From NCBI GenBank assembly GCA_014238525.1, contig JABAAY010000002.1:1-47121 (forward strand): a DNA stretch of 47,121 nt, written 5' to 3'. This DNA is from Mycoplasmatales bacterium (GTDB lineage: Bacteria > Bacillota_I > Bacilli_A > Mycoplasmatales > JABAAY01). The position numbers were made by a program, and so were the translations under genes. Of the stretch, positions 17,823 to 24,842 are shown in pieces; the stretch's first letter is position 1, and each line of letters begins with the position of its first letter. A model generated the notes under the pieces. The model had not been told where the DNA came from. It ran no database searches and worked only from the letters and a program-made list of their open reading frames with translations.

Positions 17823-18389
17823 TTATGACTTATTGAAAATAGCTCTCACTTTTTTGATCATTTGATAATTTAAGGAATTTAATTTTGGTCGTGAGATACA
17901 CATCTTTTCTTCTATTTCTTTACTCTTGTACCCCTCGACTTTTAATTGACATAGTTCTTTTTCCTTTTCGTTAAGCTTATCCGAGTAAATAATTTTATCA
18001 ATAATCAATTTATTGAATATTTGTTCATGTATATTGGTTTTATTTTGTATAAAAAATTTTAAATTATCATAGTTGCTACTCTTATTAATTGTCTGATGTT
18101 TTAATGTTAAAAACTTTTTAATATAATCATTGCTTAACCCCTTAAGAGTTGTTATAAAAAATTGTACAAAATTAATTTTAAAACTTTTGTCATATCTGTA
18201 AATAGAACGAACAAAAGATTTGTGGATTATAAAGTCAAAATCGTTGATTTCAAGACCTACATTATAAAATTTATTTAATTTGCTCCTCAGAAGAATTTTA
18301 GCTTTTTTATAATGCCTATTTAACAGCAAATTAAATAGCTCACTGCTAAATTCATTTTGTAATAAGTATGCTATTTCATTATCTGTCAT
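17823..18389 (-). CDS. Alternative RNA polymerase sigma factor, SigH/sigma-70 family-like (188 aa)
   Basis: It occupies the sigH slot of the Firmicute cysS-rlmB-sigH-rpmG-secE-nusG cluster. The C-terminal region resembles a region-4 HTH (LNEKEKELCQLKVEGYKSKEIEEKMCISRPKLNSLNYQMIKKVR). The size is typical of group-4-like sigma factors. Confidence 0.6.
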   Translation of the reverse strand: MTDNEIAYLLQNEFSSELFNLLLNRHYKKAKILLRSKLNKFYNVGLEINDFDFIIHKSFVRSIYRYDKSFKINFVQFFITTLKGLSNDYIKKFLTLKHQTINKSSNYDNLKFFIQNKTNIHEQIFNKLIIDKIIYSDKLNEKEKELCQLKVEGYKSKEIEEKMCISRPKLNSLNYQMIKKVRAIFNKS

Positions 18390-19149
18390 TTTTCATTTCA
18401 AAATTTTTACTTAAAATAACTGCAGTTGCACTGCTAACATTTAGACTTTCCACTACAGGATTGGTCTGAATTCAAGAATAGTAATCACAATTCTTTTGCA
18501 AAATAGGTTTCACTCCAACGGCTTCATTGCCAACAATAAATGCTGTATTTTGTCGAGGATCAGTATACTCGAATTTTTGTTCGGCTTTGCCTTTACACAT
18601 ACCTACTGTAACTACATCGTGTTTTTTCAATTTCAATATAGCATCGTGAATGTTTTTTACTCTAATAATTTTAATATTGGTGACGTATCCTGCGGACGTC
18701 TTATAAACTGTTCCGTTAACTTGAGATTGATTTTTGTCACAAATAATTATGTAATTAACTTTAAAAGCTACTGCGTTTCTAATTATTGAGCCAAAATTTT
18801 GCGGATCCTGAATTTGATCTAAAACAAGAAATGTAATTCCGTCATTTGGACGTGTGTTTTCGAGGGTTTTTTTCATATCGTAGTATTGAAATTCACTTTT
18901 CAATTCAGCAATAACGCCTTGGTGATTGACATTCATCATATTTGTCAATGCAGATTTATTTTTATAAACAATTTTCCCATTTAATTCGGGCATTTTTGCA
19001 AACGGAGAATCAAAATAAGTAAAAACTTTTTTTATTGCAATTTTCTCATCTATAATTTTTTGCACTATTTTCTTCCCATAAACAATATTGGAATTTTCCA
19101 ATAAATTTATAGATTTAAAATTATTTTTTTTAAATTTTGGTCTATTCAT
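18379..19149 (-). CDS. rlmB: TrmH/SpoU-family 23S rRNA 2'-O-methyltransferase (RlmB/YacO-like, 256 aa)
   Basis: Track ORF 18472..19149 continues through TGA 18472 to TAA 18379. SpoU motifs present: DQIQDPQNFGSIIRN, AFIVGNEAVG and SLNVSSATAVIL. It lies in the syntenic position after cysS. Confidence 0.85.
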
Positions 19150-20471
19150 TATAAAATACTTTTTTCAATAAGGATTTTCCTTATTTTGTCTGCTTCCTGA
19201 TATTTCTTTTCACTTTTCTTAGTGCATCATTCTTCGTATAGTTTCTTTTCCTCTGTTGTTATTTGTACATCTTCAAAAACAAATCCTAAAATTGTTTTTA
19301 AGCAATATATTGTCTTTGAAAAGCAATCGTTTAACTTTGTGACATTTTTCTCAAAATTTTTATACAGTGTATGTATTTCTGTTATTTTCTTATCCACTTC
19401 GGAAAGGATGTTAGGAAAATTAAAGTCATCTTGAATAGCTTGCTCTATTTCCGAATCAATTTCGTTCTTTTCCTGTAGTCGGATGCCTTGTATTTGAAAA
19501 TTTTTACTGACTTTTTGAAAAAGAGAATCTCACGCTGCCACTTTTGTTTTAGCTTCTGTCAATAAAGAAGAATTTAGATTAATGGGTGCCTCATAAGAGG
19601 ATTTGTAAAAAATATAACGCAAAGTGTTCGGATCATTATTGTTTAAAAAATCTTTAATTTTAAGTATATTTCCTAAAGATTTAGACATTTTTACTCCAAA
19701 AATATTTAAACTTCCGTTGTGCATTCAAATATTGGCTAACGGTTTTTGATCATATGCATATTTTTGAATTATTTCGTTTTCGTGGTGGGGAAATTTTAAA
19801 TCCACTCCCCCGATGTGAATATCGACAAATCCTTGTAAAAATTTTTCAATAAATGCGACACATTGGGTATGTCACCCAGGCCTGCCCTTCCCATATTTAG
19901 AATCCCACTTGATTCCACCATCAGTATTTTTTCACAAGACAAAGTCAGCAAAATATTTTTTATTTTTGTCGTTGTCAAGCGTTTCATTCATTTTTTCTAA
20001 ATTTTGATTGCTTAATTTCCCATACACCTTGGAAAACTTCTTAACATTGAAGTAGACATTTCCACCCGATTTATAAGCCGCATTCAGATCAAAAAGTTTA
20101 TCGATATAATTTAAAATGGTATCTATTTCATTTGTAACTTGCGGTTCACAGGTGGGTGTAAGTAAATTTAATTTTTGTTGATTTTCTCTATAATTTTTAA
20201 TGTTTGTTTCTGAAATATATTTTTCATCAACATTTTGTTGTTTTGCGCTAAGTATAATTTTGTCATCTATGTCAGTAATGTTTACAACTGTTTTAACTTC
20301 GATTTTGTGATGTCTAAAATATCTAGTTAATACATCTGCAAGAATAAGTGGTCGCATGTTTCCTATGTGGAGTTCACTATAAACTGTAGGACCGCAAACA
20401 TATATTTTCAATGTTTGTTTTGATAAATCAATGTTTTCTTTTTTTTGGGTAAGAGTGTTAAATATCTTCAT
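19149..20471 (-). CDS. cysS: Cysteine--tRNA ligase (440 aa)
   Basis: The frame is joined across TGA codons only, and I checked all of 19149..19932. Motifs present: [13 protein letters not shown] (HIGH), GRPGW(TGA)[16 protein letters not shown] and KMSKS. The stop TAA at 19149..19151 overlaps the rlmB ATG. Confidence 0.95.
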
Positions 20472-22560
20472 TTTTTATTGCTCAATGTTTATTAGTTATT
20501 GTACTCATTTTTAACTTTTTTGTACTTGAAATATTTCTATATTTGTCTTCAATTTCCTGTGGAACGGGTTTAGAGGATAAAAAATACTTAGTAAGTTCAT
20601 TGCTCGGGGAGCTTTCTATCTTTTGCTTGTCTCCTTGTTCCACGCAAACACCGTTGAAAAAAAACGAAACTTGTTCTGTTATTGGACTTATATACTTGTA
20701 ATTATTAGGGCTTGAAATAAATACTATTTTTGTATCGCTCTCCTTAATAACGAATTTAAGTTGATTTAAAAAATCTTTGAATTCCTTTTGATTTTTGTGA
20801 AAATTATATTTTTGCAAATTAATAACTAAAAGTCTTGCATTAAAAAATATGGCAAAAATAGCCGTAATTTTATTTAGTCACAGTTCGTTAACCGTGTCTG
20901 CTTTTGTTTGTAGAAAATCACCGTTTATTCCTGCTTTGTTAAAAAGTTCTGTTAGTTTATCGTATTGATCATCTAGTATCTCATAAGCCGAAACTGCGCT
21001 ATTTTCACTATAGAGGTTTTGAGTAGTGGCTTGCGAGTGAAAATTTTCTTTAACTGCTTTGTATCTGCTTTCAAAAGTTCTCTTTTGTTGATTAGAAAAT
21101 AGTTTACTGTTATCTTTATAAAATTCTCCAAATTCCTTTTTACTGTTGTTTTCAAAAGATTTTTTAAAAACAAATCTGTATTGTTTAGGAGGTTTGTTAA
21201 CGTAAAAATGATTTAGAATTTTCTTTTCTCATAAAATTAGACTATTCAGTGCTTGTTTTTTTTTGCTAGTCAACGTTTTTATTTTTTCTTTTCTTTCCGC
21301 CTTACAATTTTTGATTTGCTGTTTGTAGTGAACAACGTTAGTGCGGTAGCGTTCAAATGCATTCCAAGTACTGTTGGAAAACTTTTTATCAATATTTTGA
21401 AGATGTTTCTTGTGATTATACTTCAGCAAACGGTATGGCTGTGTAAAGTGTTTGTCTTTAAAAATTTTAGATTTAAGAAAGAAAGATTCTATTTTGTGTG
21501 TGTATTGATCGTTGTAGTTACGTTCATGTTCTTTTATTTCAAAAAATTCTTTTTCAATAATTTTGTCATATTTTGCTCTAAGTGCATCAATTTCAACAAA
21601 ATTTCTTGCTTCAAACAGACTGATTACTTTCCCTTTTTTTCAACTAGAAATCGAAGCGTTTGGTCCTTGTTCTTCAACTAACTTCTTATCCAAAGCAATA
21701 AAAAATTTTTTGAAGTAATCGGAATTTTTCTTTAATTTTTTGACTTTTTTATGGTTAGTTTTAAGTTGTTTAATCGATAGCATGTCTAATTCATGACGAT
21801 ATTGCTTTTTTTTGTTGCTATAATTTTCCACAAATTCGTTGTTTGTTTTGGTGAGTTTTTCCAAAAAAATGCGCACTTCATGTCAGTTGTGTTCATACAT
21901 TTTCTTGTATTTTGTTTTTAACTCTTTTTTTTGCAAAACAAAAGAATCCACTGCAGCTTCCACAACCGTTTTAAATTCGTTTTTCTCCAAATAATAGTTA
22001 GTGTTTGCAATTTTTACTAAAGACTTTTCTTCACTTATTTTCTTCTTGTAATTGTTAGTGATTGTATTTTTTTTGTCTTCGTAGTACTCTACAAAATTAT
22101 GAAAGTACTCCTTTTCTTTTGTTTCAATGCTTTTTAATTTTTCGTGTTCGTTTTTTGGGACAACTGTTCGTCAATAATCTATTTTGCTTGTTAAGTTTTG
22201 GAGGAATAACCTTTTTCGTTGTTTGGATTGTAACTTTGAATCTTTAAAAAGCTCTGCAAAGAATGTATCAACAATTCTATATCTGTTTTTTAAGATTCTC
22301 CGTTTGATATCAAAAAAATTAACAGAAAATAATTCTTCATCTCAAAAATTTATAGAATTGTCGTTATTGTACGCGTTTATTTCTCCATTAAAAGGCAACT
22401 TTTTATTAAACATTTTTTCTATATCGTTATAGTGAGCGTTTGAAAAAAATGTTCAATATCTAGTTTTATTATCCAGAAGAAACTCTTCGTTTTTGAAAAC
22501 TTCCTTGTGAAAGTTTTCGTTTGTTGAGAACTTAAGCTTGTTGAATTCTATTACACTCAT
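20458..22560 (-). CDS. Lys-rich 700-aa protein; degenerate OppF-like ABC ATPase paralog lacking Walker A, signature, Walker B and H-loop
   Basis: A single code-4 frame runs from ATG 22560 to TAA 20458, with nine TGA and no TAA or TAG. It subsumes track ORFs 21640..21876, 21229..21429 and 20482..20817. The C-terminal ~120 aa are collinear with OppF of this window: LFNKAGINGDF / ITAIFAIFFNARLLVINLQ / TKIVFISSP / VSFFFNGVCVEQGDKQKI / ELTKYFLSS. Confidence 0.65.
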
Positions 22561-22588
22561 AAAATCATTATAAGTATAATATTAAAAT
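22561..22588. promoter_or_regulatory. 28-bp divergent intergenic region with back-to-back TATAAT boxes (probable leaderless transcripts)
   Basis: The plus-strand TATAAT at 22575..22580 lies 8 nt before ATG 22589. The minus-strand TATAAT (complement of 22567..22572) lies 6 nt before ATG 22560. Neither side has a Shine-Dalgarno. Confidence 0.35.
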
Positions 22589-22987
22589 ATGAAAACAAAA
22601 ATAGCGATTATTTTGTCATCGTGGTGAATAATAACAATTATCTTTATGTTTCCTTTGGCTATAGAATTTGGTTCTACGCGTGATGTCCCCGGTGGAGTTG
22701 CTTATGAGGTTATTGCAGTTATTTTTTTGGTTATTGATGGATTGGGGGGAATAATTTCATTTGGTTCTGGAGTTAGATTGCAAAAAGGAAAGGCAATCAA
22801 AAATGCTCATCTAAAAAATACACGTTCAGCCAAAGAAAGTGAGATGGTGGATTCCTTTGCCACTAATCATCTAGGATCTTACAACTATGTTACTTTTATT
22901 GCGAGAGTAAGGTATTCATTCTATATTTTGTTTTTTTGAATGATTAATTTCATAAGTGTTTTGTCAATATTTCTTTTTCTAAGGTAG
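22589..22987 (+). CDS. Small integral membrane protein (132 aa, 3-4 TM)
   Basis: ATG at 22589. The frame joins track ORF 22646..22939 through TGA codons (SSWW, FFW) and ends at TAG 22985..22987. Hydrophobic segments: IAIILSSWWIITIIFMF, VIAVIFLVIDGLGGIISF and FYILFFWMINFISVLSIFLFL. Confidence 0.55.
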
Positions 22988-22997
22988 AGATACTTTT

Positions 22998-24842
22998 TTA
23001 TTCCAACACAAAATGTGTTTCAGATAATTTTCTATATTTTTGGTGGTCTGAAAGAAGCTCATCAAAATAATTAGATTTTTGCTCTTTCAAGTTTTGGATA
23101 GTTGTTAAAGATTTCATTAAATTTTTTGTATATGGGTGTTGTGTATTACTGAATATCTCTTTTGAAGTTCCTTTTTCAACAATTTTACCGTTGTACATAA
23201 CAACTAGTCGATCACAAACATATTCAACAACTCTTAAATCGTGTGCAATTAAAATAATTGTGAACTTGTATTTTTCTTGTAGATCTTTTAATAAATTTAT
23301 AACCTGGGCTTGAACACTAACATCAAGTGCGGATATTGGTTCGTCCGCAATTAGTATGCTAGGGTTAACAACAAGAGCTCTGGCGATACCCACTCTTTGC
23401 ATTTGTCCACCGGATAACTCTGAAGGAAAATTATTGGAAAAAGCAGGATTTAAGCCACAATCACGCATTGAAGTATAAACTTTTTGTCTAATCTGTTTAT
23501 TTCGATTCACAACACTGTGCTTTTCCTTAGTTTTTTTGGTAATTTCCCTAATCTTTTTTTGTGTTGCTGACGAAAGTTTTCCTCTTGTTTGTTTATTGTT
23601 TAATTTTTGCTCACATTTTTTAATAAATTTGTAATGTGTAGCGTGCAATCTTTCTATTTCCTTTTGGCTTTTTTCTATTTTAATCTTAAGGTCGCGAGTG
23701 TGTTTTTGTTTATTTTTATGAAAATAAACAATCTGTTCACGTAATGTTTGTCTAAAAAGAGAGGTGTACTTTGCAATATTGTTAATATATTTTTCTCTAG
23801 CCACTTTTGTTAATGCTTCATGCGCGGAACCATTTTCAGTCAATATCGACTCTTTTGCCTCTATAATTTTTGTTCGTTTTTCAAATTCATACTGTTGTAA
23901 TCAATTAATGTGTTTTTTAAATTCATTTTTTTCAACTTTGGTTGTAATATTGTTTTTTAGTTTTTCAGCTCTTTCTTGATTTCTTTTTCGTTCTTGTTCA
24001 AAACCTTTACTTATGGCGTCAATCGCTTTGCTAATTTTCGCTGTAGTGGTTGCATCTAAGGGTTTTTTCTCAAGATTGTTATCTCGTGTTTTCTCTAATG
24101 ACTCTCTAAACAAAGATCTTTCTTTTTCTCTATAGGCGCTTATGGCTTGTTTGTAATATTTTTTTTCAAGTTTAGGCAGTCTTTTGTGCTGTGTAATTTC
24201 TGCATGCGCGCTTAAAATTTTGTTCTGCTCTATGTCAACATGGAATAGATAATCTTTGTAACTAGAGCGATAATACGATAATAATTCAACGATATTGTTT
24301 TGTGTGTCCTTGCGTTTTTTTTCATCTTTTATCAGGTCTTCGGCTTTCAACAACTCTATTTCTAACTTCAGATATCGATACGCTTTTTTTGCCTTATCTT
24401 TAAAGTCATTTTTATTAAGTAAACCCTCTGCAATTATGTCAAATATTTTTTTACTTGTGTTTACAGAACCAAAAGGGTCTTGAAATATCATTTGCACTGT
24501 GTCAGCCATTCAGGAATTAAATGATCCCTTGATGGCGTTGGAACGGGCAGGAATTGATCGTTGATTTATTCCAATTGATCCGTTTTGTCTATTGTATAAG
24601 CCTAACATTGTTCTTGCTGTTGTTGTTTTTCCGCTACCAGATTCTCCAACTATTCCAAAAAATTCGCCAGTTTTAACAGAAAAACTAATGTCGTCTACGG
24701 CTTTCACTAATTTTCCGTTGCTACTAAAAAAAACAGAAAGATTTTTAACATCCACTGCTTTTTTATGTTCTTGTATGCGAATAACTTTTTCTTGTTTTTC
24801 ATCGACTATTTGTGTAGCAGAGGAAACTTGTTCTTTTTTCAT
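22998..24842 (-). CDS. oppF: Oligopeptide ABC transporter ATP-binding protein OppF with a ~300-aa Lys/Glu-rich insertion (614 aa)
   Basis: Three ORFs in one frame join at TGA 23901 and 24510. Motifs: Walker A GESGSGKT, Q-loop MIFQDP, signature LSGGQMQR, Walker B ILIADEP, H-loop IAHD and QHPYTKNL. The insertion lies between the Q-loop and the signature. As I recall it, a large OppF of this kind is known from M. genitalium and M. pneumoniae. Confidence 0.9.

Follow-up and report, generated by a model that had tools for sequence, protein, structure and literature searches.

A selectively maintained gene in sponge-associated Mycoplasmatales encodes a predicted pseudo-ATPase with a relic of an Opp/Dpp-class ABC domain

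The window analysed here is a stretch of 47,121 nucleotides from a Mycoplasmatales bacterium (GenBank assembly GCA_014238525.1, contig JABAAY010000002.1, positions 1 to 47,121). On its minus strand, a coding sequence at 20458..22560 extends from an ATG at 22560 to a TAA at 20458-20460 and comprises 700 codons plus the TAA under genetic code 4. The predicted product carries, toward its C-terminus, the remnant of one half of the nucleotide-binding domain (NBD) of an ATP-binding cassette (ABC) ATPase, from which the catalytic motifs have been lost, and a long Lys-rich region predicted to be helical occupies its middle. The gene is maintained by selection, and the most strongly constrained segment of its product lies in the middle region and not in the ATPase remnant.

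The 700-codon gene and its conservation

Translation under genetic code 4 and codon counting gave zero internal TAA or TAG codons in the 700-codon frame, together with eight in-frame TGA codons read as Trp (codons 36, 73, 130, 226, 307, 444, 561, and 693) and a single TGG. TGA encodes Trp in the neighbouring genes as well. The G+C content of the gene stretch is 28%, and the chance of finding 700 codons without TAA or TAG, calculated from the base composition, is about 4e-23; the remaining five frames across the same stretch contain 17-61 TAA or TAG codons each. These results agree with an earlier note on this DNA, which had described a single 700-codon code-4 frame, free of TAA and TAG and unlikely to be open by chance, except that eight TGA codons were counted instead of the nine given there. 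The frame lies on the minus strand, and the predicted product has a mass of 84.6 kDa and an isoelectric point (pI) of 9.6.

A word-indexed search of 5.8e9 proteins returned a lone ortholog, which is also 700 residues long and is 87% identical, from 'Mycoplasmatales bacterium bin5p' (GCA_014238225). No further ortholog beyond this sister metagenome-assembled genome (MAG) was found in the word-indexed search, in a full HMMER search of 1.84e9 representatives, or in a scan of the GTDB genomes. GCA_014238225 is the ~0.67-Mb genome of a symbiont of the glass sponge Vazella pourtalesii and belongs to a deep-branching clade of Mycoplasmatota (PMC13599016). The window represents a second member of this sponge-associated clade, the genomes of which are of ~0.67 Mb, and over at least 18 kb it is fully syntenic with GCA_014238225. 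The gene order common to both genomes runs through oppABCDF, a small open reading frame (ORF) on the opposite strand, the 700-aa gene, cysS, a SpoU methylase gene, secE, nusG, rplK, and rplA.

The two 700-aa orthologs align with zero indels, all of the TGA codons are kept (8/8), and the start, the stop, and the overlap with cysS are kept in the sister genome. The ratio of nonsynonymous to synonymous substitution rates (dN/dS) of the 700-aa gene, estimated by the Nei-Gojobori method for the window versus the sister ortholog, was 0.057 at a dS of ~1.08. For the neighbouring genes in the same genome pair, the ratios were 0.030 (oppD), 0.044 (oppF), 0.085 (cysS), and 0.055 (SpoU methylase). Across the window and the sister genome, synonymous sites are near saturation (dS 0.7-1.1), yet no indels were found in the five genes compared. 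These results indicate that the 700-aa gene is real, selectively maintained, and lineage-restricted, being known so far from this genome and one sister MAG. The earlier note had proposed a maintained gene and not a pseudogene, with dN/dS against an ortholog as the check, and the low ratio, the lack of indels, and the retention of every TGA codon support that proposal.

The constraint is not uniform along the protein. Residues 300-413 (21322..21663, minus strand), the most constrained segment, are 96% identical to the ortholog at the amino acid level, with a proportion of nonsynonymous differences (pN) of 0.018, a proportion of synonymous differences (pS) of 0.65, and a pN/pS of 0.027. For residues 505-556 (20893-21048, minus strand), pN/pS was 0.018. 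Elsewhere, pN/pS was 0.10 in the N-terminus, 0.136 in the NBD relic (residues 557-700), and 0.10-0.14 in most of the remaining protein. In the segments 300-413 and 505-556, pS stays high (0.44-0.65), indicating that the constraint acts on the protein and not on the DNA. The ATPase remnant is thus not the best-kept part of the protein; the strongest constraint is found in residues 300-413, the segment that starts at the putative apex of the helical region described below.

The C-terminal relic and the loss of its catalytic motifs

NCBIfam, HMMER, hhalign, and pairwise comparisons place the relic, which corresponds to the C-terminal half of an NBD of the Opp/Dpp class, at residues 531-690 (20491..20970, minus strand). 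It spans the pre-signature helix, the signature position, the Walker B strand, the D-loop, the H-loop strand, the C-terminal beta strands, and the start of the oligo_HPY extension. The NCBIfam matches of the window protein (CntF, CntD, DppF, OppF, and NikD; E 1e-5 to 1e-2) fall on the last ~75 profile positions of the Opp/Dpp/Cnt/Nik and some other ABC ATPases. Taken together with those of the ortholog, the matches are collinear on the last ~75-165 profile positions and concern more than 10 families. The ortholog matched NF008453 (DppF-like) with an E of 6.5e-7, its residues 508-673 aligning to profile positions 113-274 of 334, and the OppF family PRK15079 with an E of 6.8e-5. In the comparison with the OppF/DppF-type subunits of the peptide/nickel (PepT-family) importers (E. 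coli DppF, 8z1w_D; E. coli OppF, 8z21; and the OppF of the window), residues ~510-690 are in register with the second half of the NBD, and the likeness extends through the 'vmy.GkiVE.G' strands into the start of the HPYT/oligo_HPY extension.

In a filter-free HMMER search, the 1.84e9 cluster representatives yielded three proteins, namely the ortholog and two fused Opp/Dpp proteins of the ordinary double-NBD kind, which were matched through residues 535-661 and 595-663 of the 700-aa protein. A custom profile, built from 238 Opp/Dpp NBDs collected with the OppF of the window as query, gave HMMER scores of 34.6 bits for the ortholog (profile positions 105-279 to residues 509-689) and of 24.7 bits for the window protein. 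When the two-sequence alignment was compared with the NBD family in hhalign, residues 470-698 aligned to OppD 99-341 with a probability of 95.3% and an E of 2e-8. In pairwise alignments, the C-terminus gave a z of 5.0 with the window OppF (6.7 for the ortholog), a score that was equalled by 0 of 1000 shuffles, and z values of 5.1 and 5.3 with the window OppD; 0 of 500-1000 shuffles reached the OppF score.

These scores lie far below the thresholds for family membership. The NCBIfam matches amount to 25-29 bits versus curated cut-offs of 380-660, and the best OppF/DppF equivalog score is 28.9 bits versus a cut-off of 408 (the cut-offs for PRK15079, NF043071, and PRK11308 are 408-660). In Pfam, neither ortholog matched ABC_tran (PF00005) even at E<=10, and nothing was matched by the whole protein or by any of its three parts. 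No match was found in PADLOC or PHROGs either, which gives no support for a defence-system or phage origin. As judged from these comparisons, residues ~510-690 derive from the rear half of an NBD of the Opp/Dpp class, to which their similarity is remote but significant. The kinship to an ABC NBD proposed in the earlier note therefore holds for this C-terminal half, whereas the fold signature of a whole NBD, which it had also claimed, was not recovered in the sequence tests.

The register of the motif positions agrees among the HMMER alignment to the custom profile, the hhalign alignment, and the MAFFT alignment. The same three methods place the C-terminal equivalents listed earlier (AGINGDFLQTKADTVNELW, LLVINLQ, KIVFISSP, VSFFFNGVCVEQGDKQKI, and NELTKYFLSS) in the same register as before. 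At the signature position, the consensus LSGGQ is replaced by VNELW (residues 557-561; 20878..20892, minus strand; three alignments), and by ISELW in the ortholog. The Walker B position and the D-loop position that follows it (20797..20832, minus strand; three alignments) read LLVINLQ, versus the consensus hhhhDEP, and YNFH, versus SALD. The Walker B Asp is thereby replaced by Asn581 and the Glu by Leu582; LLVINL is the same in the ortholog, where the D-loop position reads YNFD. The H-loop position (20701..20718, minus strand; hhalign and MAFFT) reads ISSPNN, and ISNPNN in the ortholog, versus the consensus I[ST]HD, so that the switch His is replaced by Ser/Asn, with an additional 2-residue insertion. 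At the start of the C-terminal extension, NELT stands in place of HPYT in both orthologs, with Thr657 as the sole kept residue, and only the first residues of the oligo_HPY block are recognisable (NELTKYFLSSKP versus HPYTkaLLsa.P).

In a pattern search throughout the protein, [AG]x4GK[ST], GK[ST], G-x(1-4)-GK, SGG, and hhhhD[DE] were all absent, and the P-loop forms were absent from both orthologs. The whole 700-aa protein contains 8 Gly, only one of which precedes residue 299. The Q-loop Gln was not identifiable, and residues 1-140 gave no significant alignment to the profile of the N-terminal half of the NBD. With all motifs of the C-terminal half replaced and no P-loop present, canonical ATP binding or hydrolysis would not be expected; with both Walker A and the signature lost, neither of the two composite ATP sites could presumably form with an active partner NBD. 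By its sequence, the 700-aa protein is therefore a predicted pseudo-ATPase, for which canonical ABC-type ATP binding and hydrolysis should be impossible. It differs from OppF/DppF in the lack of an identifiable Walker A or Q-loop, in the substitutions at LSGGQ, at the Walker B Asp-Glu, in the D-loop, and at the H-loop His, and in its N-terminal half, for which no test gave a relation to theirs. Since the sequence fails each catalytic feature and each curated threshold, its classification as an ABC ATPase or as OppF would be inappropriate. The loss of Walker A, LSGGQ, Walker B, and the H-loop had been recognised previously, and the D-loop can be added to that list.

The other regions of the protein and the gene neighbourhood

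The Lys-rich middle, residues 136-530 (20971..22155, minus strand), was delimited by composition and by the secondary structure of the AlphaFold2 model. It contains 19% Lys and has a net charge of +37. In the second of two AlphaFold2 runs, helices were modelled at residues 136-184, 195-278, 280-298, 309-363, 370-388, and 397-451; residues 200-350 reached a predicted local distance difference test score (pLDDT) of 63-90, with the ortholog alone as the alignment depth there. The middle region had no match in Pfam, NCBIfam, or the PDB, and no homolog besides the ortholog was detected. A break in the modelled helices, GPNASISSWK (residues 299-308; 21637..21666, minus strand), lies near the midpoint of the helical span, and G299 and G310, which are among the 8 Gly of the protein, are both kept in the ortholog. 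The position of the break near the helical midpoint suggests a fold-back arm, and residues 299-308 are hypothesised, on the basis of the model, to be the candidate apex of an antiparallel helical hairpin.

The N-terminal region, residues 1-135 (22156..22560, minus strand), has no family match, and its pN/pS of 0.10 is that of a coding, constrained sequence. Residues 1-80, in which aromatic residues and Asn are abundant, are for the most part not helical, and two helices come next. With the profile of the N-terminal half of the NBD, the N-terminus scored -0.8 bits, and 836 of 1000 shuffles were as good or better. The Smith-Waterman alignment with OppF gave a z of 0.28, the local and global hhalign alignments with the NBD were no better than column shuffles, and gap-free hydrophobicity threading at the register proposed in the earlier note gave an r of 0.16 (z 1.3). 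The N-terminal correspondence suggested there, with IEFNKLKFS opposite LSVFF and FSNAHYND at the Walker A position, is thus at chance level in the profile, pairwise, hhalign, and threading tests. The length and the non-helical character of the N-terminus are nevertheless compatible with a degenerate N-terminal lobe of an NBD, which it may be, and the non-helical, hydrophobic and aromatic nature of residues 1-80 is compatible, in this sense only, with their complementing the sheet of the C-terminal half.

The best PDB match of the N-terminal region was a non-significant phmmer match (E 0.22) of residues 53-115 (22216-22404, minus strand) to the oligonucleotide/oligosaccharide-binding (OB) fold domain A of yeast RPA70 (PDB 1ynx), in which GEINAYN...ELFSVNFFD is aligned with GEIKTWH...KLFNVNFLD; Pfam gave no OB-fold match. 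This resemblance is probably due to chance, and it was not adopted, although it is the sole lead for an N-terminus of other than NBD nature.

The presumed parent gene, oppF (22998..24842, minus strand), encodes 614 residues with intact GESGSGKT, LSGGQ, ILIADEP, and AHD motifs. Its product contains a ~300-residue Lys/Glu-rich helical insert at about residues 150-452, which follows the first helix of its helical subdomain and precedes the pre-signature helix, and Pfam splits its ABC_tran match into two stretches, in addition to oligo_HPY. No homolog of the insert alone was found at E<=1e-3 among the 5.8e9 proteins, and a literature search returned neither a described OppF insert nor a dead ABC paralog in Mollicutes. 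The insert evolves faster than the rest of OppF (88.6% versus 95.6% identity between the two genomes).

With regard to parentage, the 700-aa protein matched the F-type families DppF and OppF. None of the matched families bears the name DppD or OppD, and scores were about equal for the CntD/CntF and NikD/NikE pairs. The F-type matches and the adjacent position of oppF make oppF the likeliest parent, although the preference for OppF over OppD is not decisive, and the 700-aa gene is probably derived from an oppF duplicate. The designation 'OppF paralog' in the earlier note remains plausible on account of the F-type matches and the helical insert at the equivalent place, whereas the similarity to OppD, which is about as strong, does not single out OppF.

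On the downstream side, cysS (19149..20471, minus strand) starts at an ATG at 20471, 14 nt inside the 3' end of the 700-aa gene. This 14-nt overlap, which was noted before and is kept in the sister genome too, suggests translational coupling. Downstream of cysS lie genes for a SpoU-family methylase, secE, nusG, rplK, and rplA, as named from the Pfam labels and the syntenic sister contig. Upstream, oppA, B, C, D, and F are on the minus strand, and a 132-codon ORF on the plus strand (22589-22987) lies between oppF and the 700-aa gene. This ORF has 76% identity in the sister MAG with a pN/pS of 0.25, and its product, which has three hydrophobic segments, is probably a small membrane protein. The ORF is convergent with oppF, and its start is 28 nt from that of the 700-aa gene; with 28 nt between the opposed start codons, both promoters must overlap coding regions. 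The 700-aa gene had been placed just downstream of the opp operon, and the opp genes do lie upstream of it, but the opposite-strand ORF between them breaks the contiguity.

A promoter-like site, TTTTCA-17 nt-TATAAT (22567..22595, minus strand), matches the consensus at 10 of 12 positions and ends 7 nt before the ATG, and the last ~47 nt upstream of the ATG are identical in the sister genome. By its match to the consensus, the site would imply a putative transcription start of its own with a very short leader. The 700-aa gene would then lie outside the opp transcription unit and be coupled to cysS instead.

Further along the cluster, a 195-codon ORF (17823-18410, minus strand) follows the SpoU-family methylase gene and precedes rpmG-like, secE, and nusG genes; its counterpart in the sister contig (188 aa) has no Pfam match. 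Its C-terminus (EKEKELCQLKVEGYKSKEIEEKMCISRPKLNSLNYQMIKKV) looks like a sigma-70 region-4 or LuxR-type helix-turn-helix, and its slot is that of yacP/sigH in the cysS-rlmB-...-secE-nusG cluster of Bacillus. At 13957-15016 (plus strand), two genes interrupt the minus-strand run from rplA to rplJ, an arrangement that is kept in the sister MAG; they encode an isochorismatase-family protein (about 205-211 aa) and an unannotated ORF of ~143-151 codons.

Origin and possible function

Several known systems share parts of this architecture. In the degenerate sites of CFTR NBD1, TAP1, and TM287/288, catalytic residues (the Walker B Glu, the H-loop His, and the signature) are substituted, while the fold is kept in a non-hydrolytic role. 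These domains still have Walker A and still bind ATP; the degeneracy affects just one of the two composite sites, and the transporters to which the domains belong are functional. The 700-aa protein differs from them in having lost every motif, so that no ATP site can be expected to form. In the SMC, Rad50, and RecN ATPases, a head is combined with an antiparallel coiled coil and an apex; the 700-aa protein resembles them in its terminal globular parts, the several hundred helical residues between, the conserved break in the middle, and the C-terminal location of the signature and Walker B positions. It differs from them in showing no sequence similarity, in its inactive head, and in its importer-type (Opp/Dpp) C-terminal lobe, and its coiled-coil geometry is putative. 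The arms of ABC-F proteins such as EttA are helical hairpins of about 40-50 residues in the alpha-helical subdomain, which contact partners and belong to active twin-NBD proteins. In contrast, the 700-aa protein has ~400 helical residues in a single dead domain, and no homology to these arms was detected. To our knowledge, an NBD derivative that stands alone, lacks every motif, and consists mainly of a ~400-residue helical region has not been described, and a literature search returned nothing comparable.

On balance, we consider it probable that the 700-aa protein is a maintained pseudo-ATPase, the C-terminal half of which derives from an Opp/Dpp NBD, likely through an oppF duplicate, and which combines an inert head with a helical arm in a non-enzymatic, structural or adaptor role. 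According to this reading, an oppF duplicate that already contained the long helical insertion would have lost all of its nucleotide chemistry. The inert head would be formed by the relic half-domain, to which the beta-rich N-terminal ~80 residues probably add the missing part, and the ~400-residue helical region would fold back at the conserved Gly-Pro break at 299-308. The conserved segment 300-413 would be the functional, partner-binding part. The basic cytoplasmic protein would thus act as a structural element or adaptor and would not energise transport, and its own promoter-like site would drive its expression along with that of cysS and of the translation and secretion genes further downstream. 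Descent from oppF specifically, the NBD nature of the N-terminus, the hairpin geometry, and any partner are inferred.

Several observations weigh against this reading. The C-terminus is about as similar to the OppD of the window as to its OppF, which makes descent from oppF specifically no more than likely. No test tied the N-terminal lobe to an NBD, and a complete dead head is thus a conjecture. AlphaFold2 gave a mean pLDDT of 35 with the two orthologs alone; in the second run, to which NBD fragments covering only ~531-690 were added, so that the N-terminus was given no NBD alignment information, residues 1-111 were modelled at a pLDDT of 25-40, a range in which the N-terminus lay in both runs, with a short helix predicted at 41-51. 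The C-terminal relic reached a pLDDT of 80-96 in the same model, with strands at 577-581, 611-615, 630-635, and 638-644, but this confident model and its Foldseek matches to ABC NBDs are circular, because the input alignment consisted of NBD fragments, and they were not counted as evidence. The hairpin is read from secondary structure only, in a model with a predicted template modelling score (pTM) of 0.34, and the hydrophobic periodicity is ~3.6-3.67 and not a clean heptad value of 3.5. Between the middle region and the OppF insert, the similarity is at the level of shuffled sequences (BLASTP E 6.8; Smith-Waterman z 2.4; hhalign 14.85 versus a shuffle mean of 14.81). The middle region is thus Lys-rich and predicted to be helical, as described in the earlier note, whereas the resemblance to the OppF insert claimed there is compositional. 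Finally, the conservation patterns come from one pairwise comparison of two sequences.

The reading proposed in the earlier note goes further and takes the whole protein as a collinear OppF duplicate that keeps the NBD fold and serves as a regulatory or scaffolding partner of Opp, docking on OppB/C or pairing with OppD/OppF. We regard this as possible but rather unlikely. The homology of the C-terminal lobe, the adjoining oppF, and an OppF-like layout (a ~130-residue N-terminus, a long helical middle, and a C-terminal lobe) are in its favour, as is the non-helical nature of the N-terminal 80 residues, in which the predicted helix at 41-51 falls where the P-loop helix would be. Moreover, an isolated C-terminal half of a RecA-like sheet would need partner strands. 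However, the homology of the N-terminus and of the insert is at chance in all tests, constraint is weaker on the NBD relic than on the middle, and the opposite-strand gene separates the 700-aa gene from opp, with the coupling directed to cysS. With Walker A and the signature dead, canonical ATP-driven pairing would be impossible, as judged from the motif losses, and a role with Opp is pure inference.

A somewhat more doubtful explanation is partial capture or fusion, in which the 3' part of an oppF- or oppD-like gene was joined to unrelated N-terminal and helical sequence, with the relic as a structural remnant and with an operon-linked role, for example in association with nucleic acids or the ribosome. 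The lack of NBD signal in the N-terminus and the strongest constraint lying outside the relic are consistent with this, as are the pI of 9.6, the charge of +37 in the middle region, the translational coupling to cysS together with the separate promoter-like site, and the weak, non-significant RPA70 resemblance of residues 53-115 (E 0.22). In contrast, half of a RecA-like domain would probably not fold unless complementary strands were supplied, and the relic is still under purifying selection (pN/pS 0.136). The richness in Lys and Asn is expected at 28% G+C, the OB-fold match is not significant and has no counterpart in Pfam, and operon membership is a weak guide to function in reduced genomes.

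More speculative, and in our view improbable, is a version of the oppF-duplicate origin in which the protein has become Rad50/SMC-like in shape, with a dead head and a fold-back arm. Here the duplicate would have kept its arm, the conserved tip-proximal segment of which (300-413) would bind a partner; the protein might form an arm-to-arm pair with OppF or serve as a tether for a different machine.

The remaining explanations are effectively excluded. It is very unlikely that chance or composition alone produced the ABC resemblance in an unrelated orphan coiled-coil protein: the single-sequence E-values are modest (NCBIfam 1e-5; PDB 0.3), the scores are far under the curated cut-offs, and Pfam ABC_tran was not matched, but more than 10 ABC families and three alignment methods give collinear matches in one and the same register, and the matched region lies outside the low-complexity helical part. 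Besides the ortholog, the unbiased scan of 1.84e9 proteins yielded Opp/Dpp NBDs only, and neither the hhalign E of 2e-8 nor the absence of any shuffle reaching the OppF score is expected of an artefact. A decaying pseudogene or non-coding frame left by a recently inactivated oppF copy, as the lost catalytic motifs and the missing Pfam match might suggest, is hardly tenable and was rejected, given a dN/dS of 0.057, equal to that of essential neighbours, and zero indels or stops at a dS of ~1.08, with 700 open codons at 28% G+C (P ~4e-23) and a conserved start, stop, and cysS overlap. Membership in the SMC/Rad50/RecN/SbcC group, in which an antiparallel coiled coil splits the halves of an ABC-type head, would account for the small N-terminal region, the ~400 helical residues with a central break, and the C-terminal signature and Walker B positions, but it is just as hard to sustain and was rejected, since no SMC_N, AAA_23, or SMC/Rad50/RecN match was found in Pfam, NCBIfam, PADLOC, or the PDB, no Walker A is present, and the C-terminus is specifically of the Opp/Dpp class, including the oligo_HPY start.

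The practical reach of the finding is limited, as the family has been seen in only two genomes, both of uncultured, sponge-associated bacteria. Genomes of ~0.67 Mb have shed nearly all dispensable genes, and an 85-kDa orphan that is kept in such a genome under selection as strong as that on cysS and oppF must be useful. The 700-aa protein provides what appears to be a clean natural example of a pseudo-enzyme made from an ABC transporter ATPase: nothing is left of the nucleotide chemistry, the fold can still be recognised in its rear half, and the strongest constraint now falls on a long helical region. The protein also points to the long helical insert that the active OppF carries in this lineage. 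If the Rad50/SMC-like reading is true, the design of head, coiled coil, and apex would have arisen independently from a transporter NBD in a ~0.67-Mb genome. If the model of an arm on a dead head, which we favour, is true, a transporter subunit would have been recycled into a structural or adaptor protein.

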